From the NCBI GenBank assembly GCA_007118855.1, contig SKQU01000026.1, positions 4,505 to 68,504 of the forward strand: 64,000 bases of DNA, given 5' to 3'. Shown here piece after piece: positions 132 to 50,481 of the stretch; within the stretch, counting starts at the first letter, position 1; each line of letters begins with the position of its first letter. The stretch is from Spirochaetaceae bacterium (lineage in GTDB: Bacteria; Spirochaetota; Spirochaetia; DSM-27196; SLST01). Position numbers and translations under genes: made by a program. The notes below the pieces were generated by a model. It was not told where the DNA came from. It ran no database searches and was given only the letters and a program-made list of their open reading frames with translations.

Positions 132-659
132 TCAAGGTCTCCAGCCCTGTTCCGGTCCGGCGGAAGCGAGCCAGCTTCGGTAGCGCGACAGCTCTTCAAG
201 GAAGTTCGGCGTGTAGATCTCGCGTGGGTGTCCGCCTATCTCGGCGATCGACCAGAACCGCCCCTCGGTGATCTCGGTCGGGTCCACCTGCACCGGGCCG
301 TCCCAGAGGGCGCGAAACGTGGCGACCATTTCCGACTCGTACTCGTTGCGGTGCAGATACCGGTAGAGCGGGTCGATCCGTGCGCCGTCTATCCCCAGCT
401 CTTCCCGCATCTCGCGTCTGGCCGCCTGCTCATAGGTTTCGCCGGTGTCAACGTGTCCGCCCACCGAGGTGTCCCACCGGTTGGGCTGGACGTCCTTCTC
501 CGGTGAGCGCAGCTGCAGGAAGAGCTCGCCGAGCGAGTTGAACACGAGCACATGGGCCACGCGATGGATGAGCTGCGGGTTGCCGTGAACCTGCGCGCGA
601 AGCGCGCACCCGACCACCTCGTCGGCTTCGTTCACCACGTCGAAGACTTCTGCGCTCAT
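132..659 (-). CDS. Nudix hydrolase
   Basis: 175-aa ORF with a complete Nudix box GHVDTGETYEQAARREMREELGI (Gx5Ex7REUxEExGU). Its ATG at 659 overlaps the TGA of the upstream gene (ATGA). Confidence 0.8.
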   Translation of the reverse strand: MSAEVFDVVNEADEVVGCALRAQVHGNPQLIHRVAHVLVFNSLGELFLQLRSPEKDVQPNRWDTSVGGHVDTGETYEQAARREMREELGIDGARIDPLYRYLHRNEYESEMVATFRALWDGPVQVDPTEITEGRFWSIAEIGGHPREIYTPNFLEELSRYRSWLASAGPEQGWRP

Positions 660-1813
660 GGGCCCGTCTGGCGCCCTCCCATCGTGAGCGCGTGGATCGT
701 TCCCTGCAGTTCGCGTATCTGCTGCTTCTGCGCCGAGATCAGGCGGATGAACTCCTCCGCCGTGGCCTCGTCCGGATTCTCGTCGAGACGCGTGCCCGGG
801 TGCGGGTTGATCGACCCGTAGTCGTCTTCGGCCTCAATGGTTGCGAGCGCGAAACTGTCCTCGTACTCGTCGAGATCGAGCGGCATCTCCGGAAAGCGTT
901 CGGAGTGGATTATCTTCTGCGCGATCCGGTCGATCTCCTTCAGGATCAGGGAGTCCCGCCCCACGAGCGCGAGCGGTACCGTATCGCTCACCGCCTCCCG
1001 GACGATGTGGTCGTAGTAGAGGAACCCGAGGCAGCTCGGCTCGAGCTGCAGGCGCTCTTCTATCAGCGTCCGCAGGCTCTGGACGATCTCCATGTCCTCC
1101 GGATGATCCGCCATGCTGACGATGATGCTCGGGCGCAGTTGGCTGATCCGGTCGCGAGCGAGCTTCGCGGCACGCTTGCTGATCTTCTCGATGCCTTCGA
1201 CGATCTGCGCGATGCTCGGCGTGGCGTTCGGCTGTCGCTCCTTCACGATGTCCGACAGGAATCGGCTGACACCCTTCTGGTCCGAGAAGGTCTGCTGCAG
1301 GAGCCGGAAGACGGCGTTCTTGAGGAACCCGTAGGCATTCAGGATCGACGGGGTCTGCGGCGTCGTCACCATGAGTCCCGAGTTCGAGATCAGGAAGAAG
1401 TCGAGGGTGTTGAAGTGGCTGCCTGACCCGAGGTCGAGCAGGATGTAGTCGGCATCGAGCTTCTCGATATTCGTGATGATGCTTCGCTTCTGCGCATGAG
1501 AGAGGTTCGCCGCTGCGGCGACCAGTACGTCCCCGGGAATGAACTCGAGGTTGGGGTACGGTGAGCGTACGCGCACATCGTTGAAGCTCACCGAGCGGTC
1601 GGAGAGGAAGTTCCCGATCCCGCGATGGCGGTTCTTCACGCCGAGGTAGGTGTGCAGATTCGACGCGCCGAGGTCGAGATCGATCACCACGGTGCGCTGA
1701 CCGAAGGAAGCGAGCGATATCCCGAGGTTGGCGACGAGCACGCTCTTGCCCACGCCGCCCTTTCCCGATGCGACCGGCAGAATCTTTCGCCGAAGGTCTT
1801 CGTTGATGATCAT
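656..1813 (-). CDS. MinD/ParA-family P-loop ATPase (FlhG/YlxH-like) with an acidic, coiled-coil C-terminal tail
   Basis: 385 aa. Deviant Walker A near the N-terminus (VASGKGGVGKSV) followed by VVIDLDLGASNLH. C-terminal EEFIRLISAQKQQIRELQGTI segment. ATG at 1813 preceded by AGGGGAG. Confidence 0.8.
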   Translation of the reverse strand: MIINEDLRRKILPVASGKGGVGKSVLVANLGISLASFGQRTVVIDLDLGASNLHTYLGVKNRHRGIGNFLSDRSVSFNDVRVRSPYPNLEFIPGDVLVAAAANLSHAQKRSIITNIEKLDADYILLDLGSGSHFNTLDFFLISNSGLMVTTPQTPSILNAYGFLKNAVFRLLQQTFSDQKGVSRFLSDIVKERQPNATPSIAQIVEGIEKISKRAAKLARDRISQLRPSIIVSMADHPEDMEIVQSLRTLIEERLQLEPSCLGFLYYDHIVREAVSDTVPLALVGRDSLILKEIDRIAQKIIHSERFPEMPLDLDEYEDSFALATIEAEDDYGSINPHPGTRLDENPDEATAEEFIRLISAQKQQIRELQGTIHALTMGGRQTGP

Positions 1814-1901: not shown

Positions 1902-4481
1902 ATGCTAGAGATATTCGATCAGAACCCACAGAGTCGCGTGTTTCACGTGGACCGCGAGTGCTACGTGGTCTACCTCGGATCCCACTGGGAAGACTTCAAG
2001 CCGTTCCTGCGACTGGGAACCTCGCCCGAGCTCCCGCCCGAGCTCCCGCCCATCGTATCCACGATCGTCGTTCCGGACGCGCTCACCGGGAACCCGCTGG
2101 ACGAGCCTGCATGCCTCGCCGGCGATGCCACGCCGGATACGCACTATGTGGGTGATCTGGAGACGGTCGAGCACATGAAGAGCTTCGTCGGTCAGCACAC
2201 GATCCCCGTGGAGGCGATCGAAGCGATCGATCACGAGGACGACGACGGCAAGCACGTGCTCGTCTACTACTATAAGGACGGCAATCTGAAGATCAAGTTT
2301 CGCAGGAACGAGATCTTCGACCTCAGACGCCGTGAGAAGCTCGACGGACACTTCATCGCGCGTGCCCAGGATGCCAAAAACGAATATGGACGCGGGCCCT
2401 TCAAGTTCCCCGGCGATGCGTATCAGCTGCCCGGCTTCATCGTGCTGCGCGGCGCCCCCTACCTCGTAGCGCGCGGAGAGCTCGCGGCGCTGCATCTGAC
2501 CGACGACTACTTCTTTGCGCTCTCGGCGGCCGGTATCGACGCGGACAGGGTATCGACGGTGCAGGCCGAGGAGGCGGACGCCGCGCTCATCCGGTTCTTC
2601 AAGCGCAGTCGTACCCGGAACCGGCTGGTGCGCATCTCCTCGCCTCGCGGTGAGCGGGTTCGCCAGGCATCAGATCTCTTTCCGGCCAACTCGTTGCCTC
2701 CGTTGAAGACGATAGTTCTGGAAGGCCATGGCGGCGTCTTTGATTTCCACAAGTTCCGCGTGACGCGGGCGTCGGGACGGTTCGAGGCCTCGCTCGACGG
2801 GCTCGACGGGCCGATCGTGTTCGGGTCCGCCGCAAAGAAGACACGCGACGGTTCGTACGTGGTCGACGCGACCGCCGGGTCACTCCTGTTCGTCCGGTCA
2901 AAGACGAGCCATCCGCTCGTCGAGGGAACGCTCTACCAGTTCGGCGGGGTCCCCACGAACGACGACGCGAGTCGTTTTCTGCCCGAGAAGAACTACCCCT
3001 ACCGTGATCTGCTCTCCCAGGCCGAGAATACGCTGCTTGCGCAGCTCGAATACTTCTTCAACGAGCTGTTCGGCGGCCGCGACACCGCGAAGGTGATCCG
3101 AACGCTGAAGGGGCTCGATCCTGTGAAGGCGATCGGCAGGGACGACGGCTCGATCCACCCGATCGTTGAGGTCGTGCTTCACAACTACAAGGAGTATGCC
3201 CGGTACGTTCGCGACCATGAAGCGGAGGTCGGTCGCGGGGCGGAGGCCCTTCTGGGTCTGCTCGACCGTCACCAGGTTGGCAGGGCGGATGCCCCTGCCA
3301 ACCTGCCTCTTGTGGGTGAGATCTGCCGCGATGGCGAGCGGGAGTACCTCTTCTACCGCCTTGCCGCACGGATCACCGGCGACCGCTACGCTCATGCGGA
3401 ACAGGTTGCCGCGAAGGTTTACGCGCTCCCGGCCGTTGATTTCGCCGCCGAACGTCAGCGTCTGGTGGACCTCATCGCCGGGCTTGCGACGCCGGAGCAG
3501 ATGGACGAGGCTCGGTTGCGCCGGATCGCCGCGGCGGGAAAGAAGAAGGCTGCCGACCGACGCGCGGGCGAGTCCGAGAAGGAAGGCGCGGGCGGTTCAG
3601 AGCAGGATGCTCACGGCCGGGGAGACGGGACGACACCAGCGGGTGCACGGGAGCGGGGCGGGAAAGCCGCACCTCGCGGGAGAGCCGCCGGGGGCCGAGG
3701 CGCGGGCACCCGACGCAGGACCGGACGGCGCAGATGGGTGCTTCCGACCGCGGTGCTGCTCGTCCTGATCGCGGCGCTCCTGGCGCTGCTTCTCACCGGC
3801 ACGATCCCGAGTCCCTGGTTCGATCCCGTGGAGCCGGCGGCGGTGACCGACGACCCCACGGTTCCGATGCCCGACCCGGACGTCGTCGACCCGGACCTGA
3901 GGGACCCGGATGTCGACCCGGATGTGACCGATCCGGACCTGGTAGATCCGGACGCCGTCGTTCCGGACGCCGTCGATCCGGATGTGGAGCCTCGCCTGCC
4001 CGACGGATGGCCCGAGGAGTCTCTCCCGGCGATTCAGGCGCTCGAGCAGACGCCCGGTGTGACGATCACCGAAACCAGCGTGATCGGTCCGGGCGGGATC
4101 GAGATCACCCTGCGTGACATCATTGACCTGGTCAACCGAATCGCGACCGACAACGGGTATGCGCCCATGGGCGTGATTGACCCCGACCGGCCCGACCCTG
4201 ACTGGATCTATCCGGGAAATCTCTTTGTACTCCCGGACGGCACGCGCTACACTGTAGTGCAAGGTGATACGCTGTGGCACATCACCGTTCGGTATATGGT
4301 GGCTCGTTTGCGCAGCGACTACGACCGGTACACCCGTCTCGTCGCCGAGTACGAAGATGAAGCAACCGGTGAAGCGCGTCGGACCGAGATCGTTGAGTTA
4401 CTGGCGGCGCTCGGTGCTGCTTCGCACACCGAGAATTTCACCCGACTGGTCGAGGAGACCCTTGATCGCTGGGAAGAATAG
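1902..4481 (+). CDS. Uncharacterised bitopic membrane protein: ~590-aa cytoplasmic region, Arg/Gly-rich linker, one TM helix, D-P-D repeat spacer, C-terminal LysM-like segment
   Basis: 859-aa ORF with ATG plus SD. One hydrophobic helix (WVLPTAVLLVLIAALLALLLTG) preceded by an RRRTGRRR positive-inside cluster. (V/L)xDPD repeats follow. LysM-like strings IYPGNLFVLP and YTVVQGDTLWHITVRY sit near the C-terminus. Confidence 0.7.
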   Translation: MLEIFDQNPQSRVFHVDRECYVVYLGSHWEDFKPFLRLGTSPELPPELPPIVSTIVVPDALTGNPLDEPACLAGDATPDTHYVGDLETVEHMKSFVGQHTIPVEAIEAIDHEDDDGKHVLVYYYKDGNLKIKFRRNEIFDLRRREKLDGHFIARAQDAKNEYGRGPFKFPGDAYQLPGFIVLRGAPYLVARGELAALHLTDDYFFALSAAGIDADRVSTVQAEEADAALIRFFKRSRTRNRLVRISSPRGERVRQASDLFPANSLPPLKTIVLEGHGGVFDFHKFRVTRASGRFEASLDGLDGPIVFGSAAKKTRDGSYVVDATAGSLLFVRSKTSHPLVEGTLYQFGGVPTNDDASRFLPEKNYPYRDLLSQAENTLLAQLEYFFNELFGGRDTAKVIRTLKGLDPVKAIGRDDGSIHPIVEVVLHNYKEYARYVRDHEAEVGRGAEALLGLLDRHQVGRADAPANLPLVGEICRDGEREYLFYRLAARITGDRYAHAEQVAAKVYALPAVDFAAERQRLVDLIAGLATPEQMDEARLRRIAAAGKKKAADRRAGESEKEGAGGSEQDAHGRGDGTTPAGARERGGKAAPRGRAAGGRGAGTRRRTGRRRWVLPTAVLLVLIAALLALLLTGTIPSPWFDPVEPAAVTDDPTVPMPDPDVVDPDLRDPDVDPDVTDPDLVDPDAVVPDAVDPDVEPRLPDGWPEESLPAIQALEQTPGVTITETSVIGPGGIEITLRDIIDLVNRIATDNGYAPMGVIDPDRPDPDWIYPGNLFVLPDGTRYTVVQGDTLWHITVRYMVARLRSDYDRYTRLVAEYEDEATGEARRTEIVELLAALGAASHTENFTRLVEETLDRWEE
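3867..3992 (+). repeat. In-frame degenerate Asp-Pro-Asp repeat tract (MPDPDVVDPDLRDPDVDPDVTDPDLVDPDAVVPDAVDPDVEP)
   Basis: Reiterated gacccggac / gatccggat units in the DNA, immediately after the TM helix of the 859-aa protein. Confidence 0.8.
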
Positions 4482-4507
4482 ACCGAAGGAGGAGAGAAGG
4501 GTTTTAG

Positions 4508-4535
4508 TTGTTAACGCTGGAAAGTGTATTATACT
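4508..4535 (+). promoter_or_regulatory. Candidate promoter for the cfpA-like gene (TTGTTA-N16-TATACT)
   Basis: AT-rich patch in the 125-bp intergenic region. TTGTTA at 4508-4513 and TATACT at 4530-4535. Confidence 0.35.
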
Positions 4536-4557
4536 TAGGCCGGGGAGAACGAGAGCC

Positions 4558-4581
4558 GGGCAGAGCGTAGTGCTTCTGCCC
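4558..4581 (+). promoter_or_regulatory. 5' leader stem-loop upstream of the cfpA-like gene
   Basis: GGGCAGA(GC)gtagt(GC)tTCTGCCC gives 7+2 bp with one bulge. It lies between the candidate -10 and the AGGAAGGAG SD. No U-tract follows, so it is not a canonical terminator. Confidence 0.35.
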
Positions 4582-4606
4582 AAAACCACCACAGGAAGGA
4601 GTTAGT

Positions 4607-6583
4607 ATGTCCGATATCCCAAGGAGTCCAAACGTATTTCACCCTCGCAAGCCGTCAGCTGTTGGGTCACGCAACAGTCTGGCCCAGGAAGGGCGAAGCC
4701 AGAAGGACGAGTACAAGCAGGTCATCGCTGAAGAGGTGGAGAACATCCTCAAGGACATCCAGGTCAAGCTGCCGAACGAAGTGCTCGAGCAGCTCGACGT
4801 CATGGGTGGACTGAAGGAGAAGATCTACAACTACTACAACCAGAATTACCAGAACATGTTCAACCGGTACATCGTGACCGCTGAAGATGAGATGGTGAAG
4901 AAGGTTCGTAACTTCATCGACAAGGAAGAGTCGAAGGCCCTCGCGCGGTATTCTCCCAAGGAGATCGCCGAGATGCTCGACCAGATCGGTGGGGCGGACA
5001 AGTTCAACACCGGCGAGATCGAGAAGTCGATGGTCAACATGTACGGCCATCTCCAGGGGCACATCCAGCGAGGGATGAACGATCTCGAGAACGACACCAA
5101 CGCGCTGCTGCGGCAGAAGGCCGACGTCGGTGCCTTCATTCGCGGCGAGAACGCCTATTCGATCGTGAAATGCGCGTTCAAGGACAACCTCCACAAGCCG
5201 AAGAACGTCAGCGACGTGAAGCTCTCGGTGAACATTCTCGACTCCGAGCTCATAAGCCCGATCTTCCAGTACCAGGTGACCGTGGAGTTCCTGATCAAGG
5301 ACCAGATCGCCAAGACGATTACGACGCTGATCGAGCAGGAAGTCGAGCGCTACCAGGACGAGCTCGTTGACGAGGGCAAGGACGAGCTGACCGACAGCGA
5401 GATGATTTTCGAGAAGATCAAGCGGGTTCCGAACTACACCGACGACGATGCGGAGGACGAGAGCTCGAAGCGCTACACCTTCATGGCGAAGGAACTCGTC
5501 GAGAAGATCGAGGGGCTTCGCGCGGAGATCGATCCCAAGGAGTTCGATCCGCTCAACATCCGGGAGAACATCAAGAAGATCATCGACGCGGAGAACATTC
5601 GCAACCGCGGGTTCAACACGGCGATCAACTCGCTGACCTCAATTCTTGACACGTCGAAGATGGGCTATCAGTACATCGAGAACCTGAAGAACGCCCGCGA
5701 GCTCATCGTACGAGAGTACGAGGACACGGACGTCAACAACCTGCCGGACGAACGTTACCAGATGCGCCTGAAGTACTACGACCAGGAGCAGCTGCTGAAG
5801 GAGCGCGACGCGTACGACAAGCAGATGGAAGCGTTCAAGAACGAGATCACGCATGCGTGGGACGTCGTTCGCGCTCTCTACGACAGCAACAAGAGCGGCA
5901 TGCGGGTCAACGACTTCGACGACGTTGCGAAGCGGATGCGCGGTCGGGTTCGGCGTGCAAAGCAGGAGAGCGGAGAGCCGCTGTACGAGGAGATCGAGAA
6001 GACCTGGAACGAGATTCTGCGCATCAAGGCGGAGGAGACCGACGTCGAGCGGCTCAACAACACCTACCTGCACGAGAAGGCTCTGCTGAAGAAGATGCTC
6101 AACCGCTCCCAGGAGACGGTGGCGACGGTATACGGTCATCTCAATCCCAAGGAGCGGGTCGAGGTGGACAAGCGGATCCACTTCCTGCGGCGCGAGTTCG
6201 AGGAGTTCGACTACCTGATCAACCCCTACCATATTCAGCCGGGCCTCATCCTCGACGTGGACATCACCAGCATCAAGCGGAAGAAGTTCACGCTCAACGG
6301 GATGGCGAACGTGCTGAACGAGTTCCTGCACGGTGTCTCCAAGGGCTTCCAGGATGCGGCCTTCGCAACCTTCAAGCGCCGACGCAGCACGGTTCGCGAA
6401 GACCTGAACCAGAGTTTCATGTCCACTGTTGACCAGGAGATCACGGCTCAGGTCCCGGAGGCACAGCACTTCGAGTCGGCAACCGATGACGAGGAGTCGA
6501 GTGATGCCGGAGTGAAGGGCAAGGCTGATGTGACGCCGTCGCGGCGCCGCCGGAAGTCCTCTGACGATCTGCAAGAACTGTAG
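4607..6583 (+). CDS. cfpA: CfpA-like cytoplasmic filament protein (K/E/N-rich, coiled-coil-prone)
   Basis: 658 aa, similar in size to treponemal CfpA as I recall it. Long charged heptad-like stretches. Strongest SD in the window (AGGAAGGAG). Located two genes upstream of ppdK, the order I recall for T. pallidum. No alignment was run. Confidence 0.55.
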
Positions 6584-6586
6584 GGT

Positions 6587-7561
6587 ATGGAAAACACACT
6601 GAATCTTCTGTCGCGCAGGGCCGGTTTCAACACCGCCCTGCGCCACTTCAAGAGCGTCAACGCGTTTGCCGAAGACGTCGGCGAGGGGTACAACCTCGCC
6701 GATGTGCTCAACGAGGCGCTCGAGGACGGGTCGCTTGAGCGATACCAGGTCCGCGCTGTTCTGAACGCGCTCCTGGTCGAGAAGCTCGGTTACGTCACCC
6801 GCGCTCACAATCTCGAGGCCACGATAGACGACGCAGAGCCGATCATTGAAGCCCTTTCGAAGTGGGGGAAGATCCACGTCGTACTGTGCTACTACCATCC
6901 CCAGGCCGGTCTGTACGTCATCAACCCGGCGAACCCGGCGCATTGGGACGGTGTGTTGCCGCTTGTACGGGACGAGTACTTCCTGATGTTGGTGGGTCCG
7001 GCTACCGGGTCCCCGGATCACAGGACGCTTGAACGGGCGGCCGACGACGTTCTGAAGGTGCTCTACGGAAAGAGCGTCAAGGATGATTCCGCCTACCGTG
7101 GCAACCGCCGCGTTCTGAAACCTGCAGCCGATATACCGAGCTTTGACGAGACGCAACCGGCGCGCGCGGTTACATCCGCCGTGACGACGGAGGCTCCTGC
7201 TCAGCCCGCGGCCCAACGCGGCGGCAGCAGAAAACGGATAACCCCCAAGTATTCGGTCGTGGTGACGAACGAGCTCTTCCACAACGGGAACGTGGAGGCC
7301 TGGAAGAAGATCATTGCGAGCTTCCAGGCGAAGTACCCCGGACTCGACGTCCTCATCTGGTACGAGAATGAACGGATCAACGACATCAACTCACTGTTCA
7401 AGTGGGGGAAGGTCAAGCATGGTGTTCCCATCATGTTCAGCGTTGCGGGCGATGAGATCAAGGATGTCCGCAAGCTGCAGCGCTACCTCTACGAGGGGGC
7501 AAGCCCACGATTCGAGGCATTCCTCAAGGGCGGCTACGACCAGGTGCTGGACCTATTCTGA
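6587..7561 (+). CDS. Uncharacterised two-domain protein tightly linked to the cfpA-like gene
   Basis: 324-aa ORF. ATG lies 3 nt after the cfpA-like stop. Balanced composition. Two globular-looking halves joined by an Ala/Pro/Thr/Gln linker (TSAVTTEAPAQPAAQRGG). Confidence 0.7.
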   Translation: MENTLNLLSRRAGFNTALRHFKSVNAFAEDVGEGYNLADVLNEALEDGSLERYQVRAVLNALLVEKLGYVTRAHNLEATIDDAEPIIEALSKWGKIHVVLCYYHPQAGLYVINPANPAHWDGVLPLVRDEYFLMLVGPATGSPDHRTLERAADDVLKVLYGKSVKDDSAYRGNRRVLKPAADIPSFDETQPARAVTSAVTTEAPAQPAAQRGGSRKRITPKYSVVVTNELFHNGNVEAWKKIIASFQAKYPGLDVLIWYENERINDINSLFKWGKVKHGVPIMFSVAGDEIKDVRKLQRYLYEGASPRFEAFLKGGYDQVLDLF

Positions 7562-7620
7562 CGCAGACGATCCGGCGCTCCGGCGCCGCTCGTCGATCGC
7601 TCGCATGATGGAGAGAGGGA

Positions 7621-10278
7621 ATGCAGGAGTATTACTCGTTTAGCAGTACTGAGTATCTCAGTGATCCGGAGATTCTGGAAGCCGTCGGCAGTCGCGGTCG
7701 GCGGATTATGGAGCTTGCATCGCTCGGTGCGCCCATCTCCCCCGGGTTCATCATCACGAACGACACGCTGAACCAGATCGCCGCGGACGAGGCGGGCGTC
7801 TTTGAGATGCTCAAGGATCCGCTCTCGGACATGGAGGCGATCTTTCTCAAAGAGTTCAACAGCAGCTCGAATCCGCTGCTGATCAAGGTCGTGGAGAGTC
7901 CCATGCTCAACATGGTGAACACCTTTTCCACGATTCACAACATCGGGCTGTCAACGCAGACGGTCGATGGCTTCGCGGCGTTCGTGGGCGAACAGTTCGC
8001 CTACCATGAGTTCGGGAACGCGCTCGCGCATATCGCAGAGATGGAGCTTCTGACCGAGGGCGTGCCGGCGCGGCGCAAGACGCAGCTCGAGAAGGCGAGA
8101 AAGGACTTCCACGACGCGGCGGAGAAGGCGGACAGCCGCAAGGCGGTGCTTGCCGCGGTCGACAAGCACGGTGATGTCTTCCCGAGCAAGGTCTTCACCG
8201 ACTGTTACGAACAGTTCCGCTATGTCCTGAAGACATACCACAAGCTCTTCCAGATCAACCAGAGCTCCAGCGATTCTGCAATTCTCGTGCAGACGATGGT
8301 GTTCGGAAACTTCGGGAAGAACAGCCTGTTCGGATACTTCTACACGAGAGACATCATCTCCGGGGAGAGCGGGATCACCGGGGAGTTCTTCGAAGGGTCG
8401 TTCGACGATACCGAGGTCTCCGGGAAGCCGCTTTCGAAGATCGCGAAAGCGGTCAAGACCGAGCTCGACACGATAGGATCGGAGCTCGAGGCGCACTTCC
8501 GGGAGATCCGACGCGTCCGGTTCACGATCGAGCAGGGCAAGTTGTGGGTGATCGACCAGATGGAGGTCATCAACAAGAGCGCTCAGGCGGAGCTGAAGAC
8601 CCTGCTCGATCTGCACAAGAAGAAGGTCATTGACGACAAGTACATCATTGAGACGATCAAGCCGGGTCGTCTGAGCGAGCTGCTGCATCCGGCCCTCGAC
8701 GTTCGATCGGTGAAGGACGCAGGCAGCCAGTCCGGGGGCATCGCCGGCTCGGTCGGCGCGGCGATCGGGCGGGTCTATTTCGACACCGAGGAGCTGATCA
8801 AGGCGTACCGAATGGCCGTGCAGCAGGACGAAGACGCGAACTTCATCCTCGCGATGCCGGCTACCTTCGCCGAGGACGTCAAGGCCATAGAGGTCGCCAC
8901 CGGCGTGCTGTCCAGTGAAGGCGGGTACGCGAGCCATGCACCGGTTGTCGCGCGGAGCCTTGGGAAGGTGGCGCTCGTCAAGCCCGACATCAGCTGGGGC
9001 GACAGGCAGATGAAGATAGGCCGTAAGACGATCAAGCAGGGCGACTACATCACGGTCAACGTACCGTATTACGAGGAGCCTACCGTCTACTACGGACGCG
9101 GCGAGCTGACGAAGCCGAGTCCCGAGGGCAGCGGGCTGCTTGAGTTTCTCGATATCTGTGAAAGACACATCACGCCGGATTTTGACGTGCACTGTAACGG
9201 AGACCAGCCCAAGGACGCGGAGCTCGCGAAGAAGTTCCACGCGCACGGAATAGGTCTCTGCCGAACCGAGCACATGTTCTTCGCGGAGGACCGGATTCTC
9301 AAGTTCCGCACGATGATCATCGCCGGCAACAAGGAGGACCGGGAGAAGGCGCTCGTAGACCTCAAGAAGTTCCAGATCAAGGACTTCTACGAGCTCCTGA
9401 AGATCATGGACGGCATGCCGGTCACGATCCGCCTTCTCGATGCTCCGCTGCATGAGTTCCTTCCGCATACGCGCGAGAGCATGGACGAGTTCGTCAGACA
9501 CTTCCGCAAGCAGTATCCCAAGGTCAGCGAGGCCGAGGTCCGGAATCGGTGCGACCTGCTGAAGGAGTTCAACCCGATGCTCGGCCACCGCGGTATCCGT
9601 GTGGCGATCAGCTACCCGGAGATCTACAACATGCAGGTTGAGGCGATCTTCGAGGCCGCGTACAGGCTCAAGAGCGAGAAGATGAACCCCAGGCCGGAGA
9701 TCATGATTCCGCTCATCATGAGCGCTCACGAGATGAAGACGATCCGCAACGGCAAGCGCATAGAAGGGAAGGCGATCATCGGGATCAAGGAGATAGAGGA
9801 ACGGGTCAAGAAGAAGTTCAAGGCCCGGTCGCTCGACTACAAGGTCGGGACGATGATCGAGCTTCCGGCCGCCGCGCTGAACGCCGACAGTATCGCGCAG
9901 TACGCCGAGTTCTTCAGCTTCGGCACGAACGATCTGACCCAGACGACGAACGGCCTCTCGCGTGACGATTTCAACAGCTTCTTCAGCGACTACAACGAGT
10001 TCGACCTGCTCGAGGCGAATCCGTTCAAAGTGCTCGGGGAACAGGTGAAAGAGCTGATTCGCATTGCGGCCGAACGGGGCCGGCTGACCCGGCCGAGCAT
10101 CTCCATGGGCCTGTGCGGAGAGCACGGTGCGGAGCCTGAGAACATCGCCTACGTTCGAAGCGTCGGTCTGGACTACACCAGTTGCTCGGCATACGGCATC
10201 CCGATAGCCAAGCACGCGGTGGCGAAGATGAACGTCGCAGCCGAAGCCGCTGCCAGGAAGGCCGTCGCCGGCCGCTGA
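7621..10278 (+). CDS. ppdK: Pyruvate, phosphate dikinase
   Basis: 885 aa. Phosphohistidine-domain motif GGYASHAPVVARSLG. PEP-utilising motifs GLCRTEHMFF and FSFGTNDLTQ. SD GGAGAGAGGGA. Confidence 0.95.
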   Translation: MQEYYSFSSTEYLSDPEILEAVGSRGRRIMELASLGAPISPGFIITNDTLNQIAADEAGVFEMLKDPLSDMEAIFLKEFNSSSNPLLIKVVESPMLNMVNTFSTIHNIGLSTQTVDGFAAFVGEQFAYHEFGNALAHIAEMELLTEGVPARRKTQLEKARKDFHDAAEKADSRKAVLAAVDKHGDVFPSKVFTDCYEQFRYVLKTYHKLFQINQSSSDSAILVQTMVFGNFGKNSLFGYFYTRDIISGESGITGEFFEGSFDDTEVSGKPLSKIAKAVKTELDTIGSELEAHFREIRRVRFTIEQGKLWVIDQMEVINKSAQAELKTLLDLHKKKVIDDKYIIETIKPGRLSELLHPALDVRSVKDAGSQSGGIAGSVGAAIGRVYFDTEELIKAYRMAVQQDEDANFILAMPATFAEDVKAIEVATGVLSSEGGYASHAPVVARSLGKVALVKPDISWGDRQMKIGRKTIKQGDYITVNVPYYEEPTVYYGRGELTKPSPEGSGLLEFLDICERHITPDFDVHCNGDQPKDAELAKKFHAHGIGLCRTEHMFFAEDRILKFRTMIIAGNKEDREKALVDLKKFQIKDFYELLKIMDGMPVTIRLLDAPLHEFLPHTRESMDEFVRHFRKQYPKVSEAEVRNRCDLLKEFNPMLGHRGIRVAISYPEIYNMQVEAIFEAAYRLKSEKMNPRPEIMIPLIMSAHEMKTIRNGKRIEGKAIIGIKEIEERVKKKFKARSLDYKVGTMIELPAAALNADSIAQYAEFFSFGTNDLTQTTNGLSRDDFNSFFSDYNEFDLLEANPFKVLGEQVKELIRIAAERGRLTRPSISMGLCGEHGAEPENIAYVRSVGLDYTSCSAYGIPIAKHAVAKMNVAAEAAARKAVAGR

Positions 10279-12950: not shown

Positions 12951-16079
<3,129 letters not shown>

Positions 16080-16083
<4 letters not shown>

Positions 16084-16112
16084 CCGTACGGTTGATGACA
16101 ACCGTTGGGTTG
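16080..16112. promoter_or_regulatory. Operator-like sites upstream of lacZ: a perfect 16-bp palindrome plus an adjacent 12/14 copy
   Basis: TCAACCGTACGGTTGA at 16080-16095. CAACCGTTGGGTTG at 16099-16112 matches CAACCGTACGGTTG at 12 of 14 positions. A further ACCGTACGTTG lies at 16055-16065. Confidence 0.45.
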
Positions 16113-16161
16113 GGACAACTCTGCCCTTGACGCGCCTTCGCGCCGCACGCATCATCCTCGC

Positions 16162-16845
16162 GTGTACCGTCGCCGTGCCCTGCTCGCCTTGCTGCTGCTC
16201 GTCTGCGGGATCGCCTCAGGCGAGGAGGCCGGGCCCCGGGCGACCGTTCGCCACCGTCTGTCGTTTCTGGGGGTCACGCGGTCGCAGGAGGCGGTCCCGT
16301 TGCTCGTGCTGCTCGGCGATCGCGCCGATACGCCTCCAACCGTTGCCGGGGTGCTCGGCTCCGAGCGGATGCGCGCCTACCATCCGCTCTACGTGCTCGC
16401 GATCCAGGCAGAGGGTATTGCGGAGCAGCCGACGGTCCGGACGGTCCGGTCGACGATCGAGCGCGTTCGTGACGCCTATGATGTGGATCCGGCGCGCGTC
16501 TATCTCGTGGGCGAGGGCAGCGGCGCGGACCTGATCTGGCGTCTGCTCGAGTCGTTCCCCCTCGACTATGCGGCGGCGGTGCCCGCGAACGGGCAGGGTG
16601 CACCCCGGCTCGTAGAGCGGTTCGCGGAAGTGCCCATGTGGATCTTCCACGATGCTGATGACGAGCGCGTGCCGGTCGACGTCGCGCGGGCGACCGTGGG
16701 TGCGCTCTGGGCCGCCGGAGCTGATGTCCGGTACACCGAGTACCGGGACCAGGAGACCGACCGATGGGCCGCGCTGCGGCGGGAGGACCGGTTGCTCTTC
16801 TGGCTCTTCATGCAGCGCCGTGAACAGGGTAGAGTCAACCGATGA
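16162..16845 (+). CDS. Secreted or lipoprotein-like alpha/beta-hydrolase-fold protein (putative esterase; non-canonical nucleophile motif)
   Basis: The track ORF starts at a TTG inside the lacZ operator region. An in-frame GTG at 16162 gives the signal-like N-terminus VYRRRALLALLLLVCGIASG. Also LLVLLGD, YLVGEGSGAD and PMWIFHDADDERVPV esterase-like strings. The start is uncertain. Confidence 0.45.
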   Translation: MYRRRALLALLLLVCGIASGEEAGPRATVRHRLSFLGVTRSQEAVPLLVLLGDRADTPPTVAGVLGSERMRAYHPLYVLAIQAEGIAEQPTVRTVRSTIERVRDAYDVDPARVYLVGEGSGADLIWRLLESFPLDYAAAVPANGQGAPRLVERFAEVPMWIFHDADDERVPVDVARATVGALWAAGADVRYTEYRDQETDRWAALRREDRLLFWLFMQRREQGRVNR

Positions 16846-18485
16846 ACAGCGCACCGCAATCGCTTCAGGCCTCTGTGCTCGCCGTGGGGTCCGGCAAGGG
16901 CGGCGTCGGCAAGTCGACCACCAGCGTGAACCTCGCGATCGTCGCCGCAAAGAGCGGGCGGCGCGTCGGGATCGTTGACCTCGATCCTCTGTCGAACATC
17001 GCCACCATCCTCGACGTGCCGGAACGCGACCTCGCTCGCGTCGCCGAGCGGGTCACGCATGAGACCGCATCGCTCCCGGATCAGACGGTTCGGCTCTTCC
17101 GAAACGTCGACCTGCTCTTCCCCCGGCCCAAGCTGGCGCGCGGCGAGAGCGCGAAGCTTCGCGCGGCGCTCTTCGAGCGCAATCGCTCCGTGCTGCTCGA
17201 CCGGTATGACCTGGTGATCTGCGACATGCCGGCCGGAATCGGGCGGGAGGAGAATCTCGCCTTTCTGCCCTTCGTCGACGCTCTGATCATCGTGACGAAT
17301 CCCGAGCCGACGTCGCACGTCTCGGCCGGGGGCTACATCCGGGTCGCCCGTGAGATCCGGCCCGATCTGCCGGTCCTGTTCTGGCACAATCGCCACCGTC
17401 AGACGATGCCCGGGGGATTCAACCCTACGGACGTGATTGGAAACTACAACCGCTATGTCGACGACGAGCTGCGGATCGACCCGGGGACGGCCGCGACGGT
17501 CTCGCACGTGGCGCTCATCCCGGACGACCCATCGTTGAACCTGCTGCAGCAGACGCTCGCCTTTGAGGCGCACGTGCTCGGCAAGCTGCTCGACGCGACG
17601 CAGATGCTTCACAAGGCGGTGATCGCGGGGATCGAGTCGGGCGGTGTGTTCGGCGGCGCGGCGAATCTGCTGCGCTATTACCTGAGCGCTCACCCGGGGC
17701 GACTCGCGCCGGATGAGCTGTCGCAGGAAGCGGTCCGGTACCTCACGGGAGGGGAGGCCGAAGGGTTCGGGCCGGCGGCAGGCGATGCGGACGGCGGGAT
17801 CGACGCGGCGTCGGTCGACTCGTTCGTGCATCGCTACGCCGGCCACCCGTTGACGAACTCGCTTCGCGAGACCGTCTTTGCGATTGAGCGGGCCGCAGAG
17901 CACGTCGTCGACCAGCAGCGGCTCTTCGCAACCGGCCGCGGCGACCGGCGGCCCATCACCCACGCCGCGGCCTGTGTGCGCCGTCTGATCGACGCCGTCG
18001 ACACCCACGCGGTGACGCCGTTCGAGCGGAATCTCGGCGGCATACTCCTGTGCTACCTTGGGATTCTGCTGATCTCCGGGGCGCCGCAGGTGCGTTCGCT
18101 CGTCGCGTCGGTGATTCCACGGCGCAGCGAGGAGGGACGCATCGTCCGCGACCGCCGGCACCAGATCCGCAATCTGATCGAGCGAAACGAGACATACCAC
18201 CGGCGGTACTTCACGCTCGTCCGCAAGGTCTACCCGGTGCTGGTTCACCAGATCAACCGGCTCGCGGACGCCGCCGGGTGGGGCGCAATCGTGCTCCGCG
18301 CGCGTGACGGAAGCGTCAACCGCAACGCCTACCTGAAGCTCCTGACGCACGTGCTGCACGACTCGCTGCACGCCGGACTCGGGATCTACGTTGGCTTCCG
18401 CTACAACCAGGCCGGCCGCGCGATCGAGGAGGGCGCGAAGAAGGTGCTCGCCCGTGTCCCGAGGCGGCAGCCGCCTACTGCCTGA
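16842..18485 (+). CDS. MinD/ParA-family ATPase with a ~300-aa uncharacterised C-terminal extension
   Basis: 547 aa. Deviant Walker A AVGSGKGGVGKSTT, then VGIVDLDPLSN and Walker B-like DLVICDMPAG. The ATG overlaps the upstream stop (ATGA). Confidence 0.8.
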   Translation: MNSAPQSLQASVLAVGSGKGGVGKSTTSVNLAIVAAKSGRRVGIVDLDPLSNIATILDVPERDLARVAERVTHETASLPDQTVRLFRNVDLLFPRPKLARGESAKLRAALFERNRSVLLDRYDLVICDMPAGIGREENLAFLPFVDALIIVTNPEPTSHVSAGGYIRVAREIRPDLPVLFWHNRHRQTMPGGFNPTDVIGNYNRYVDDELRIDPGTAATVSHVALIPDDPSLNLLQQTLAFEAHVLGKLLDATQMLHKAVIAGIESGGVFGGAANLLRYYLSAHPGRLAPDELSQEAVRYLTGGEAEGFGPAAGDADGGIDAASVDSFVHRYAGHPLTNSLRETVFAIERAAEHVVDQQRLFATGRGDRRPITHAAACVRRLIDAVDTHAVTPFERNLGGILLCYLGILLISGAPQVRSLVASVIPRRSEEGRIVRDRRHQIRNLIERNETYHRRYFTLVRKVYPVLVHQINRLADAAGWGAIVLRARDGSVNRNAYLKLLTHVLHDSLHAGLGIYVGFRYNQAGRAIEEGAKKVLARVPRRQPPTA

Positions 18486-19161
18486 GGACGGCCCGCTGGG
18501 CGGCCATGATCTCGTCGATTCCCGCCTCCGCAGCGTCGAGCAGATCGTTGAGCTGCCGGCGGGTGAATGATCCGTTTTCGCCTGTTCCCTGGACCTCTAT
18601 GAGCGCCTCGTCGCGCCGCACGACGTTCATGTCCACATCCGCGTGCGAATCCTGCGCGTAGTCGAGGTCGCAGACGATTTCGCCGTCCACGATGCCGACG
18701 CTGACCGCGGCGATCTGCCCGATCAGATAGTGATGCGGGCCGGGTTGCCCCTGTGCCGCCGCGAGCGCCGCGAGGGCGTCGTGGAGCGCCACCCAGCCCC
18801 CGGTGATTGCGGCGGTCCGGGTGCCTCCGTCGGCCTCCAGGACGTCGCAGTCGACGGTGATCGTGACCTCGCCGAGGAGGCTCAGATCGACCGCGGTGCG
18901 CAGACTCCGGCCGATGAGCCGCTGGATCTCCGTGCTGCGCCCGTCTCGTTTGCCGATCTCACGCGGCTTGCGGCCGCCCGGCGTGCTTCCCGGCAGCATC
19001 GAGTACTCCGCGGTGATCCAGCCCCTCCCCGTGTCGCGCAGGAAGGGCGGTACCGTCGCCTCGATCGTGGCCGAGCAGAGAACCTGCGTCAGTCCGAATT
19101 TGACGAGGCACGATCCGGCCGGATTTCGCAGCGCCTTGCGTGCGAACTCGAGACGCCTCAC
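18475..19161 (-). CDS. rph: Ribonuclease PH
   Basis: WITAEYSMLPGST, GRSTEIQRLIGRSLR and DCDVLEADGGTRTAAITG align by eye with E. coli RNase PH. The track ORF extends into fucU. I place the start at the GTG overlapping the fucU TGA (GTGA). The start is uncertain. Confidence 0.85.
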   Translation of the reverse strand: MRRLEFARKALRNPAGSCLVKFGLTQVLCSATIEATVPPFLRDTGRGWITAEYSMLPGSTPGGRKPREIGKRDGRSTEIQRLIGRSLRTAVDLSLLGEVTITVDCDVLEADGGTRTAAITGGWVALHDALAALAAAQGQPGPHHYLIGQIAAVSVGIVDGEIVCDLDYAQDSHADVDMNVVRRDEALIEVQGTGENGSFTRRQLNDLLDAAEAGIDEIMAAQRAVLRQ

Positions 19162-44879: not shown

Positions 44880-46894
44880 TCTGCCTGCTGGGCATCTGCG
44901 TCGGCGCGCACCCACAGGTGACGCATGCCCAGGTGACGCACGGCCGGGTGACGACGGAGCTCTCCGAGCAGTCGCTCGCCGTGGGTGAACGCGTCACCCT
45001 GCTCCTCACGGTCGACTACGAGGAACCGGCCGATGTCGATGTCCCGGAGCTGACAGTTCCCGGGCTGCGGGTCGTGGACGGCCCCACGATACGCCCCGTC
45101 TCGCTCTTGACTGACACGGGGCGCGAGCGCGCGGTGGAGATCCGGTACGTGCTCGAAGCCGCGACCGCCGGTCGGTTCGTGCTTCCGGCAACGGAGGTGC
45201 GGGTCGCCGGTCAGCTTTTCCTGACTGAGGAGCGTCTGATCGCGATCGGCGAGCGGCAGAATCGCAACCGGGTGCCGTTTCTCGCCCGGTGGACCGGCCC
45301 ATCCGGAGCGCCGTCTGCCGGTGAGGCCCGCGTCTACGCGGTGGAGATCTACAACGTGCCGGACTACCTCTACCCCTCCTCGGTCTCGGTCGGATCACCG
45401 CAAAACGCGATCGTGGAGGAGGTTCCGGGTCTCGGCTCGATCGCCCGGTATACCGTGGACGGAGTCACCCTCCACTCCATTCCCGTGGCGGTGTTCATGG
45501 TGACACCGTCTGAGCCGGGCACCATGAGACTGCCGGAGGTCGAGATCATCGCCGAGTCGCTCCGTGCGGTGGCACCGGCCACGACCATCAACGTCCGGGC
45601 GCTGCCCGAATCAGTCCGGCCGAGCGGCGCTGTCGGCGAGCTCGACTACGCGGTCCAGCTTGATCCCACCACGCTCCTGCGATCCGAGAGCGCTGTCCTC
45701 CGTATACGGGTCTCCGGCCGCGGCAATCTGCACTTCCTGGCCATCCCTGAGCCGCAGATCACCGGGTTTCTCGTGGAGCACGAGGAGACCCGCGGCTCGT
45801 TCATTCCCACCGAAGGCGGGTACGAGGGCTTTGTCGAGCTGGTGATGCGCCTTCGTCCGACCTCTGCTGATCGTCATGGAGTGGAACCGGCGGATCTTGT
45901 CTTCTACGACCCCTCGCGCGCACAGGTTCACCGGCTGGGCGCCGCGCCCATCGGCGTGACGGTGCAGGACATCAACGTGCCCGTTGATGACTCGGGAGCG
46001 GAGGTTGCACTCGAGCTGCTCGGACGTGAAGAGATCGCGTCCATGGAGCGGCGCATCTGGTACCGTGACCCCCTGGCGTACGGTTGGTTTGCGCCCGGGA
46101 TCCTCGCCTTCGTGGCCGGCCGGATCTGGAAGCGTCGGCACCCCGTTCTGCTCGTCCTCGCGGCCCTGGGGTCACTGTTTCTCACCAATGCGGTGTCGGA
46201 CCGGTTGCCGTGGTCGGACATCGACCGCGGCCTGCGCCGGTATGCGGAGGGTGACCTCCCGGCAGCGATTGCGGCTTTTGAGCGCTGCTCGCGGGCAGTG
46301 CCCGACTCCCCCGGCATCAACTACAACCTCGCGGTGCTCTACTTCCAGGTGGGCGATGTGCCGCGTTCGGTGTACGCCGCGCGGGAGGCGATTCGCCTCA
46401 ACCCCCTCGCCGATCACCCCCGTCAGCTGCTCCGCACGGTTGAGCAGTGGGCCGGCATAGAGCGGACGGTCGCCCCGCCTCACCACGTGCATCCTGACCT
46501 CATGTTTCTCGTTCTTGCGATCCTCGTGAACCTTCTCTTCGTGGGGGCTGCCTTCGAGCGTACCCGGCGCCGGGCAAGGACCGTCATCGTCGGCATATTC
46601 GTGGTGTTCCTCATTGGAGGCGCGGTCGCGGGTCTCGTTGCGACTGCCATCGGACACGAGCAACAGGTCGGCGTCGTGCGGGAAGACGTCACCCTGCGGC
46701 GGATCCCCGGTTCCGACGCGGCCGGGTGGCTGCCGGTCAGCAGCGGCGCCGCCGTCAACGTCCTCGCTCGCCATGGAAACTCACTGCTCGTACAGACCGT
46801 CCTGGGGCTCGAAGGATGGGTCGATCTCGACGAGATTCTGTGGCACGGTGTGCCGGCCTTCTCAGTGCTGCGGTACCGGGGGTTCGCCCTGTAA
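44828..46894 (+). CDS. batD: BatD-like protein fused to a TPR plus SH3-like (BatE-like) C-terminus
   Basis: 688 aa. Signal-like N-terminus and a long beta-rich region. TM helices, one TPR unit (AIAAFERCSRAVPDSPGINYNLAVLYFQVGD), and a C-terminal SH3-like strand pattern (VTLRRIPGSDAAGWLPVSSGAAVNVL..GWVDLDEI). Confidence 0.6.
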   Translation: MVRKPRNRRHHRSARLVVCLLGICVGAHPQVTHAQVTHGRVTTELSEQSLAVGERVTLLLTVDYEEPADVDVPELTVPGLRVVDGPTIRPVSLLTDTGRERAVEIRYVLEAATAGRFVLPATEVRVAGQLFLTEERLIAIGERQNRNRVPFLARWTGPSGAPSAGEARVYAVEIYNVPDYLYPSSVSVGSPQNAIVEEVPGLGSIARYTVDGVTLHSIPVAVFMVTPSEPGTMRLPEVEIIAESLRAVAPATTINVRALPESVRPSGAVGELDYAVQLDPTTLLRSESAVLRIRVSGRGNLHFLAIPEPQITGFLVEHEETRGSFIPTEGGYEGFVELVMRLRPTSADRHGVEPADLVFYDPSRAQVHRLGAAPIGVTVQDINVPVDDSGAEVALELLGREEIASMERRIWYRDPLAYGWFAPGILAFVAGRIWKRRHPVLLVLAALGSLFLTNAVSDRLPWSDIDRGLRRYAEGDLPAAIAAFERCSRAVPDSPGINYNLAVLYFQVGDVPRSVYAAREAIRLNPLADHPRQLLRTVEQWAGIERTVAPPHHVHPDLMFLVLAILVNLLFVGAAFERTRRRARTVIVGIFVVFLIGGAVAGLVATAIGHEQQVGVVREDVTLRRIPGSDAAGWLPVSSGAAVNVLARHGNSLLVQTVLGLEGWVDLDEILWHGVPAFSVLRYRGFAL

Positions 46895-46924
46895 CGATCG
46901 CCGGGGCAGGGTGTTTTGGAGTAT

Positions 46925-47413
46925 ATGGGAGACTTCGCCAGCATACTCGAGGAGTGGGAGTCGATGCGTCGCGGCTCCCAGCGGCAGGGTTCCGACGGGT
47001 CGCGGCTGCCCAGACCGCATGTGACAGATCCGCAGGAGGACACCGCCTGGCTTGAGCGGGCGATCGACCGGTACCCTGTCGTCGACAAGGATGCCGGTGA
47101 GGAGCCTGAGCCTGGCGAGACGGTACGTCCCGAGGATCTGCCCGTTGACGACTCGCTCGACCTGCACGGGTATACGCTCGCAGAGGCGCTGACCGCGACC
47201 GAGCAGTTCGTCAGCGCCAGTCTCGCGCGTGGACTGCGCAAAGTCATGGTCATCCATGGAAAGGGCAGGAACGGCGAGGGTGTGCTCAGGCGTGAGGTGC
47301 GACGCTACCTCGAACGCCACCCGTCGGTCGGTCGGATGGGCTATGCGAGAGGCCCGGACGGCGGGCGAGGCGCGCTATGGTCGCTGCTGCGGTACGGGGG
47401 GCAGGATCGCTGA
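46925..47413 (+). CDS. Smr-domain protein
   Basis: LDLHGYTLAEAL ... VIHGKGRNGEGVLRREVRRYL. The track start is TTG 46916; ATG at 46925 is preferred. Confidence 0.8.
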   Translation: MGDFASILEEWESMRRGSQRQGSDGSRLPRPHVTDPQEDTAWLERAIDRYPVVDKDAGEEPEPGETVRPEDLPVDDSLDLHGYTLAEALTATEQFVSASLARGLRKVMVIHGKGRNGEGVLRREVRRYLERHPSVGRMGYARGPDGGRGALWSLLRYGGQDR

Positions 47414-47423
47414 GTGGCCTCGT

Positions 47424-47642
47424 CTATCGTTCGCGGTAAATGATCCTGCCTCGGGTCAGGTCGTAGGGAGAGAGCGCAACTTTGACCTTGTCGCCCGGTA
47501 CGATGCGGATGTAGTGTTTTCGCATCTTCCCCGAGAGGTGAGTGAGGATATTGTGGCCGTTCTTGAGCTCCACGCGAAACATGGTGTTTGGAAGAGACTC
47601 CGTGACGACCCCTTCTACTTCGATTGCTTCCTCTTTTGCCAC
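47424..47642 (-). CDS. infA: Translation initiation factor IF-1
   Basis: 72 aa: [72 protein letters not shown] start after AAGGAG. Confidence 0.95.
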
Positions 47643-47661
47643 AGCAACTCCTTTTCACGAG

Positions 47662-47691
47662 ATCTTACGTAATTGATTGCGTCGTTGTCAA
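47662..47691 (-). promoter_or_regulatory. Candidate infA promoter (TTGACA-N18-TAAGAT)
   Basis: On the minus strand, TTGACA is at 47691-47686 and TAAGAT at 47667-47662. Confidence 0.4.
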
Positions 47692-47787
47692 TTCCACCGC
47701 CGGATCAGCAATCGGACATTCGCGCCGTGTTGACTTTATGTGCGGGATTCACCAGATTAAGGGACCTTTGGGTCTGGGAGGCGGTCC

Positions 47788-48144
47788 ATGGACAAGGATT
47801 TCGTCGAGCGGATGAAGGTCAAGTTGCTCGATATGAAGGCGGAGATTCTGCAGAATCTCCTCGCCGAGGACGAAGAGTTTCGGGACATCATCGAGAAGGA
47901 TGACTCCAAGGATCTCGTTGATATCGCGAGTACGGATATTGACAAGACTACACTGGAGGCGCTCGGAAGTCAGGAGATCAAGCGTTTGCGGCTGATCGAG
48001 GCGGCTCTTTCGAGAATCGACAGCGGCAGCTACGGCCTCTGTCTCAAGAGTGGCGAACCGATTCCCAGAGAACGTCTCGAAGCGATCCCGTACGCGCTCT
48101 ACCGCATTGAGTACCAGAACGAGGTGGAACGCAGGAACCGGTAA
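47788..48144 (+). CDS. dksA: DksA/TraR-family protein with a degenerate (single-Cys) zinc finger
   Basis: 118 aa. Coiled-coil N-terminus. The C-terminal GSYGLCLKSGEPIPRERLEAIPYALYRIEYQ retains only 1 of the 4 Cys of the CxxC-N17-CxxC motif. Confidence 0.8.
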   Translation: MDKDFVERMKVKLLDMKAEILQNLLAEDEEFRDIIEKDDSKDLVDIASTDIDKTTLEALGSQEIKRLRLIEAALSRIDSGSYGLCLKSGEPIPRERLEAIPYALYRIEYQNEVERRNR

Positions 48145-48173
48145 ACTCCCCTCACCATCCTTCCGATCATAAG

Positions 48174-48578: not shown

Positions 48579-48592
48579 CCGGCTCGCGCCGG

Positions 48593-49273: not shown

Positions 49274-49315
49274 TATTGATAAAAATATACCATTTATACT
49301 AATTGGGCAAGCTGC

Positions 49316-50449: not shown

Positions 50450-50453
50450 GTTC

Positions 50454-50481
50454 CGCCTGAGAGGCTCTCGCCTGAGAGGCT
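50454..50481. repeat. Tandem 15-bp duplication (CGCCTGAGAGGCT x2) between convergent genes
   Basis: Copies at 50454-50466 and 50469-50481. Each contains a GCCT-gag-AGGC mini-palindrome. Confidence 0.8.

Follow-up and report, generated by a model that had tools for sequence, protein, structure and literature searches.

A predicted ATPase of 547 amino acids (aa), encoded at positions 16842..18485 (+) of a 64,000-nucleotide (nt) stretch of contig SKQU01000026.1 from a Spirochaetaceae bacterium (this stretch at its full length is called the window), belongs to an uncharacterised and apparently spirochaete-restricted protein family. In this family an FlhG/MinD-like ATPase core (residues 1-235) is followed by a tail of about 310 residues; the family is already present in databases under generic names, and its C-terminal domain is new. 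These statements on identity and architecture are made with high confidence. As an overall explanation, we consider it probable that the new basic tail turns the ATPase into a matrix-binding switch and that the linkage of its gene to an upstream gene for a dead esterase belongs to one clade only, while the specific mechanism outlined below is put forward tentatively.

The original prediction, made from the sequence alone, described this protein as an orphan ATPase of the MinD/ParA type with the deviant Walker A motif GSGKGGVGKST and a novel tail of about 300 aa, and the description holds in each of these respects. The Walker A motif lies at residues 16-26, and residues 11-170 match the Pfam families ParA (PF10609, 57.6 bits, cut-off 27.1), AAA_31 (PF13614, 55.4 bits, cut-off 27) and CbiA (PF01656, 46.3 bits, cut-off 25.4). 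The residues that define the ParA/MinD deviant Walker A superfamily of the SIMIBI class, namely the signature Lys, the switch I Asp and the Walker B Asp, are in place: G18, G20-T26, the signature Lys19, D46, D48 and D128 show little or no variation across 30 diverse family members. Because these catalytic residues are conserved, the protein is expected to be an active, dimerising ATPase. The core is on average 58% identical to the query across the family, and the mean isoelectric point (pI) of the ATPase domain is 6.6. No par, min, flagellar or chemotaxis genes are found within about 5 kb on either side of the ATPase gene.

The closest relatives of the core are FlhG and MinD, yet the protein does not pass the membership tests of either family. 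The top NCBIfam match is bacterial MinD (TIGR01968), with 61.1 bits against an equivalog cut-off of 212.9, and ParA_partition scores 45.9 bits against a cut-off of 180, so that the protein qualifies neither as MinD nor as ParA/Soj. Sequence matches in the PDB rank MinD, FlhG, FleN, ApbC, archaeal MinD and Soj, all at 40-48 bits (48 for 6riq), with MipZ and ParF at about 18. A full-length AlphaFold2 (AF2) model built on a 30-sequence alignment reached a predicted local distance difference test (pLDDT) value of 85 and a predicted template modelling (pTM) score of 0.84; Foldseek aligned about 232 columns of it, in the N-domain only, with FlhG 4rz3 as the top match (E = 9e-8), followed by MinD and FleN, and with 5j1j also among the matches. 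MinD thus shares the fold of residues 1-235 and gives the best NCBIfam and PDB sequence matches; it differs from the family, which lies far under the MinD cut-off and carries its tail in place of a membrane-targeting sequence. Neither minC nor minE occurs within about 5 kb in the window or in the related neighbourhoods with Pfam-annotated gene calls.

A genome scan by full-length alignment was swamped by the Walker A pattern and returned 80 ordinary FlhG, Mrp and MinD loci, which were reused as controls and outgroups. Among them the N-domain matches best, at 73 and 63.5 bits, two FlhG genes that are preceded by flhF. FlhG (YlxH/FleN) is therefore the top match both by structure and, within the genome loci sampled, by sequence; it shares with the family the deviant Walker A with its signature lysine, the switch Asp residues and the PEPTS motif, is presumably the same kind of ATP-dependent dimer switch, and has lent its name to many members in the annotation of the Joint Genome Institute (JGI). 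Nevertheless, we regard it as quite unlikely that the protein is a divergent FlhG that determines how many periplasmic flagella form and where, its tail being an addition specific to spirochaetes. The N-terminal DQAxxLR motif, which in FlhG is the element that activates FlhF, is present in 7 of 7 aligned FlhF-linked FlhG proteins and absent from 7 of 7 aligned family members. Where eight aligned FlhG/MinD-like proteins carry the amphipathic membrane-targeting helix GFFKRLxxxF, the family runs into its helical tail, and it has inserts of its own (FPRPKLxRGES, WHN(K/R) and NYNRY). Identity to FlhG is just 23-35%. All seven control FlhG loci have flhF upstream, whereas no flhF, fliA or other flagellar gene adjoins the family's genes in the approximately 16 independent neighbourhoods compared; for the metagenome loci L096-L104 the screen consisted solely of tblastn with seven query proteins. 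Spirochaete FlhG has been reported to link flagellation with cell division, and the FlhG recently characterised there is a different protein, BB0269 (bioRxiv 10.64898/2026.04.08.717139).

The tail (residues 236-547) matches nothing in Pfam, NCBIfam or the PDB by sequence. Pfam searches with the tail alone and with 21 individual tails, at E-values up to 5, gave no recurrent match; a PDB profile search with the tail returned marginal coiled-coil-like matches only, the best being IRSp53 at E = 0.008, and Foldseek with the tail found nothing better than E = 0.5 and a TM score of 0.22. When modelled by itself, the tail reached a pLDDT of 83 and a pTM of 0.80. It is nevertheless a real, conserved domain. 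A search of 1.84 billion representatives with a tail profile yielded only 145 clusters, in nearly all cases with the tail at residues of about 230-550 in proteins of 500-610 aa, and the shorter matches look like fragments; the tail is thus nearly always fused to the ATPase core of the family. The ratio of nonsynonymous to synonymous substitution rates (dN/dS) of the ATPase gene against its orthologues is 0.10-0.24, equal in core and tail. In FlhG and MinD, the place of these approximately 310 tail residues is taken by a short membrane-targeting helix.

Conservation divides the tail into two parts, with a mean identity to the query of 26-33% in residues 236-390 and of 50% in residues 391-547. 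The first part is a variable helical linker. The second contains a module of about 150 aa, whose strongly basic character (pI 9.6-11.6, net charge +7 to +19) is common to all 30 members examined; the AF2 model shows it as helices plus a beta-hairpin (427-436), and its signature motifs are RNLGG, IPxRxExGRxVRDRRxQI, YHRRYF, NAYLKLLT and HDxLHAGLGxxVG. The terminal helix (residues 523-537) has a pLDDT of 89-93 in the full-length model against 46-71 in the tail-only model; because it is confident in the former only, the models hint that it packs on the ATPase core. Residues H453...H506-D507 were considered as an HD-phosphohydrolase site, and this reading was rejected, as H506 and D507 vary (QD and HN variants) and the HD fold is unmatched.

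Other ParA-type proteins with appended domains are known: type Ia ParA/SopA has an N-terminal helix-turn-helix, TadZ/CpaE an N-terminal receiver-like domain and archaeal MinD4 an extended C-terminus. They resemble the present family in combining a ParA/MinD core with an extra domain for localisation or matrix binding. The domain added here differs from theirs in being C-terminal, about 310 aa long, all-alpha and basic, and no homology to theirs was detected.

Full-length homologues of 500-610 aa were found at identities from 87% down to about 27%. All matches that name their source come from metagenome-assembled genomes labelled Spirochaetota, Spirochaetales, Spirochaetaceae, Spirochaetia or Alkalispirochaetaceae, a taxonomy that rests on the names attached to the homologue matches, as the cluster look-ups yielded almost no organism names. 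The database names of the proteins are generic (MinD/ParA family, P-loop NTPase, or FlhG or BcsQ from the JGI pipeline), and the family is not described in the literature that we searched. Two very divergent members, P0245 (765 aa) and P0261 (731 aa), are extended at the N-terminus by about 310 aa ahead of the ATPase core.

Upstream of the ATPase gene lies an open reading frame (ORF) at 16162..16845 (+) with a product of 227 aa, whose TGA stop codon overlaps the ATG of the ATPase gene in the sequence ATGA. Its start is GTG 16162, with an alternative TTG at 16105. The GTG is used by independent gene calls on four public contigs that encode the identical protein, and it is favoured because the G+C content at third codon positions (GC3), which is 0.82 within 16162-16845 and 0.86 in the ATPase gene, falls to 0.58 in the extension at 16105-16161. 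Against its orthologues the gene shows a dN/dS of 0.27-0.31. From dN/dS, gene calls and GC3 it follows that both genes are coding, not chance ORFs of a genome with 67% GC, and both are under purifying selection.

The product of this gene begins with the signal-peptide-like sequence MYRRRALLALLLLVCGIASG and is homologous, across its C-terminal two thirds, to known esterases in the PDB: Thermotoga EstA (3DOH, E = 6.2e-19), LC-Est1C (3WYD, E = 1.7e-13) and 4Q82 (E = 6e-8). It shares the fold of these proteins by homology, and it lacks the GxSxG motif and the complete Ser-Asp-His triad of an esterase. Specifically, GEGSGA aligns with GLSMGG of 3DOH, so that the position of the canonical Ser is occupied by Gly. 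Active relatives (P0283 and P0284) keep GxSMG, as GPSMGG and GFSMGA, together with the catalytic His, whereas the elbow reads GEGSGA, GEARGA, GENEGA or GHDSCA in four orthologues, with G, A, N or D at the Ser position, and none of the four keeps the His, which is replaced by T, P or other residues. The Ser within GEGSGA is not a conserved shifted nucleophile, because the orthologues carry R or E there. The acidic triad position (DADDERVPV) is largely kept. The protein therefore differs from Abhydrolase_2/S9-like carboxylesterases in having neither the nucleophile Ser nor the catalytic His, and it is a probable, predicted exported pseudo-esterase that is still under selection. Only three close clusters of this hydrolase-like family were found among 5.8 billion proteins.

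Much of what had been predicted for this neighbour stands: the overlap with the ATPase gene, the probable translation from GTG 16162, and the relationship of a signal-peptide-bearing protein with a non-canonical nucleophile motif to alpha/beta-hydrolases. As regards its description as lipoprotein-like, the signal peptide is predicted, and LLVC at residues 12-15 is a possible lipobox, atypical at the -1 position; its Cys is not conserved, and the signal peptide of the orthologue in locus L090 reads AAA-E and lacks this residue. The orthologue in L089 has an in-frame hydrophobic N-terminal extension.

The suggestion of a meaningful, translationally coupled gene pair did not survive comparison with relatives. 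The hydrolase-like gene is upstream of the ATPase gene in the window and in L089 (87% ATPase identity), L090 (73%) and L096 (57%); a neighbour-joining tree with FlhG as root groups these hydrolase-linked members into a single derived clade. It is absent from L085 (65-66% identity), where the neighbour is an EamA transporter gene, and from the upstream position in every other lineage compared. In the relatives that have it, the two genes are separated by about 14 nt (L090), about 15 nt (L089) or more than 100 nt (L096), so that this genome alone has the ATGA overlap. The overlap with the dead-esterase gene is thus a local, clade-specific accident of gene order and not a conserved partnership. 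It was further observed that in L085 a gene for a 339-aa protein (7643-8662, +) overlaps the stop of the ATPase gene by 8 nt. The protein is without a family match and carries a signal-like hydrophobic segment at its N-terminus, and the gene is absent from the window.

It is very unlikely, in our estimate, that the two proteins form a functional module in which the ATPase influences how a periplasmic (lipo)protein is exported or positioned. The overlap, the shared orientation of the two genes between one divergent and one convergent neighbour, the presence of the pair in four lineages and the purifying selection on both genes would all fit such a module, but the pair is missing from L085 and from all members outside the clade, the spacing is not conserved, the hydrolase-like family is tiny next to the far broader ATPase family, the active site is dead, and the products would belong to different compartments. 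The ATPase and the dead esterase probably make up a lineage-specific co-transcription unit that has no shared function.

A better partner candidate than the hydrolase-like protein is an AAA+ ATPase. An orthologous AAA+ gene encoding about 630 aa lies directly downstream of the ATPase gene in five lineages (L091, L093, L101/L102, L095 and L105), separated from it by a 3-nt gap in L095 and overlapping it by 8 nt in L105. The AAA+ orthologues are 41-63% identical over their full length, with a weak N-terminal bPH_3 match and an AAA plus AAA_lid_6 region nearest to SpoVK, EccA and CbbX. Three of these loci have a CbpA-type DnaJ gene on the minus strand, divergently upstream of the tailed ATPase and AAA+ genes, which are both on the plus strand. 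Both of the deepest branches in the FlhG-rooted tree belong to AAA+-linked members. The syntenic segments span 3545-8615 in L091, 3777-8636 in L093, about 3590-8470 in L101, 5001-8620 in L095 and 5001-8484 in L105; in the two most distant members the gene pair abuts an rplQ-rpoA-rpsK-rpsM-secY cluster. The idea that the 339-aa gene of L085 is a remnant of the AAA+ partner was rejected, as BLASTP shows no similarity. A PADLOC search provided no evidence of a defence system, with a Walker-A-level match only for the ATPase and weak IetA-like matches for the AAA+ protein. It may be imagined that the tailed ATPase and the bPH-AAA+ protein constitute an undescribed two-ATPase system specific to Spirochaetota, in which an FlhG-derived switch, bound to nucleoid or membrane by the new basic fold, recruits or is reset by a SpoVK/EccA/CbbX-type remodeller, sometimes with a CbpA-like J-protein, and organises a spirochaete-specific cellular structure; we consider this full scenario unlikely.

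In the mechanism that we tentatively propose, the ATPase would form an ATP-sandwich dimer like other ParA/MinD ATPases, since the catalytic residues are conserved. Dimerisation would pair two basic modules and so switch on binding to a polyanionic matrix, most likely nucleoid DNA, with the acidic inner membrane as the alternative, and ATP hydrolysis would release the protein. Such a cycle would make it a spatial regulator or a positioning switch, and the bPH-AAA+ ATPase of the SpoVK/EccA/CbbX type encoded downstream in the five other lineages would probably be its ancestral partner. ParA, McdA and ParC bind the nucleoid by basic C-terminal residues, while MinD and FlhG use a membrane-targeting sequence (PMC10241942).

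This mode of nucleoid binding, together with the strongly basic conserved module, could also point to a DNA-segregation ParA with a built-in DNA-binding domain, which partitions a chromosome or replicon and needs no separate ParB. There is little probability in this, in our judgement. The N-domain scores MinD and FlhG above Soj, ParA and ParF, its ParA_partition score is far under the cut-off given above, and no parB or parS-like partner adjoins the gene in the neighbourhoods with Pfam-annotated gene calls; in the two distant members beside the ribosomal protein/rpoA cluster, the gene is not on an evident plasmid.

A hydrophobic stretch in the tail, which had also been pointed out in the original prediction, is present as LGGILLCYLGILLISGA at residues 398-414, and it is not a conserved membrane segment. 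Its 19-residue Kyte-Doolittle mean is 1.69 in the query, against a usual threshold of 1.6, which is exceeded only in the close relatives of the query and a few others; 23 of the 30 members fall below it, and 17 of the 30 have Lys or Arg inside the stretch. In the AF2 model, residues 393-412 form a helix with a pLDDT of about 94-97 within a helical bundle. Because the stretch often carries Lys or Arg and is modelled as a high-confidence helix, we read it as a buried core helix. A membrane-anchored ATPase, with residues 398-414 as a transmembrane or re-entrant helix on the inner membrane, could draw on the value just over the threshold, but it is exceedingly unlikely for a single such segment that is flanked by basic soluble helices, charged in so many members and placed inside a confidently modelled bundle.

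The explanation that we prefer, a matrix-binding FlhG/MinD-like switch with a clade-only esterase linkage, has several points against it. The matrix-binding role is suggested by the charge of the basic module, in which no fold that binds DNA or lipids was recognised. With a hydrophobic moment of 0.59, as compared with 0.60-0.69 in FlhG membrane-targeting sequences, the terminal helix 523-537 is amphipathic and may bind membranes, although it is modelled in a folded domain. As regards the partner, the AAA+ gene is adjacent in only five of the approximately 16 independent neighbourhoods, the window contains no AAA+ homologue in its 64 kb and its organism may lack the gene, and the tree is a neighbour-joining tree of 278 columns and has no support values. 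Moreover, the pair with the hydrolase-like gene is kept in four lineages down to 57% ATPase identity, and may reflect a clade-specific functional link.

Features of the ATPase locus and of the gene upstream of it, with the evidence for each.
Feature	Position	Strand	Evidence and remarks
Sigma-70-like promoter match, TTGACG-17 nt-CATCAT	16127..16155	+	Consensus match only, weak; ends 6 nt before GTG 16162
Hydrolase-like gene (Abhydrolase_2/S9-like esterase relative, probable pseudo-enzyme)	16162..16845	+	Gene call, homology, dN/dS, GC3
Signal-peptide-like N-terminus MYRRRALLALLLLVCGIASGEE, possible atypical lipobox LLVC	16162..16227	+	Direct sequence reading
Degenerate nucleophile elbow GEGSGA, residues 117-122	16510..16527	+	Alignment to GLSMGG of 3DOH
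ATGA start/stop overlap	16842..16845	+	Sequence; not conserved in relatives
FlhG/MinD-like deviant Walker A ATPase domain, residues 1-235	16842..17546	+	Pfam, NCBIfam, PDB, Foldseek
Deviant Walker A GSGKGGVGKST, residues 16-26, signature Lys19 and Lys24	16887..16919	+	Sequence
Variable all-helical linker, residues 236-390, low-confidence loop 305-317	17547..18011	+	AF2, alignment
Conserved basic C-terminal module, residues 391-540	18012..18461	+	Motifs, charge, tail profile
Hydrophobic helix LGGILLCYLGILLISGA, residues 398-414	18033..18083	+	Kyte-Doolittle, AF2

The promoter candidate listed in the table is the sole one in the 112-nt divergent intergenic region, where a scan found one site against 0.3 expected, and no terminator-like hairpin was found across 15900-18800. 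The RNase PH gene (18475-19161, -) is convergent with the ATPase gene, with a tail-to-tail overlap of 11 nt (18475-18485). The other flanking genes within about 5 kb encode a glycoside hydrolase family 2 (GH2) beta-galactosidase, a Zn-dependent alcohol dehydrogenase, FucU/RbsD, a RhaA-like isomerase and an AraC regulator. An antisense ORF of 601 aa (16566..18371, -) covers most of the plus-strand ATPase gene; it is probably a by-product of the high GC content (67%), because the conserved, domain-bearing protein is on the plus strand.

Elsewhere in the window, the 658-aa ORF at 4607-6583 (+), about 10 kb upstream of the ATPase locus, encodes full-length CfpA, the cytoplasmic filament protein; it scores 1094.6 bits with the equivalog NF040882 against a cut-off of 500, has no Pfam match, and confirms the spirochaete origin of the DNA. 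It is followed by a 324-aa ORF that has no family match and by a gene with phosphoenolpyruvate-utilising-enzyme domains of the PPDK type (7621-10278). Another orphan ParA/MinD-like ATPase, the first in the window, is encoded at 656-1813 (-); it has 385 aa and the Walker A SGKGGVGKS, is 30% identical to the N-domain of the 547-aa ATPase over 170 residues, and shows no similarity to its tail. Its gene is located 2.8 kb from cfpA and is divergent from an 859-aa ORF (1902-4481) that has no family match. The GC content, about 0.66 elsewhere, falls to 0.57-0.60 at 4001-10000, which holds cfpA and the PPDK-type gene, and to 0.62-0.63 at 46001-52000. Additionally, the segment 21939-23989 (-) encodes a DUF6320 membrane protein (240 aa) and then, with a 4-nt overlap, a 443-aa ORF (430 aa in public records) that matches neither Pfam nor NCBIfam; the DUF6320 pair is also found in L089.

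Spatial organisation in bacterial cells depends mainly on ATPases of the ParA/MinD type, most of whose orphan members have, to our knowledge, no known cargo. The cell architecture of spirochaetes is unusual, with periplasmic flagella, cytoplasmic filaments and very long cells, and canonical FlhG is the only ATPase of this type that, as far as we know, has begun to be studied among them. The comparison with relatives removes a misleading lead, the overlap with the gene of an exported dead esterase, and provides a concrete candidate partner in the AAA+ protein. The family offers a new domain fold joined to a well understood switch, and the uniform basic character of its C-terminal module provides a testable hypothesis for how this switch may bind its matrix.

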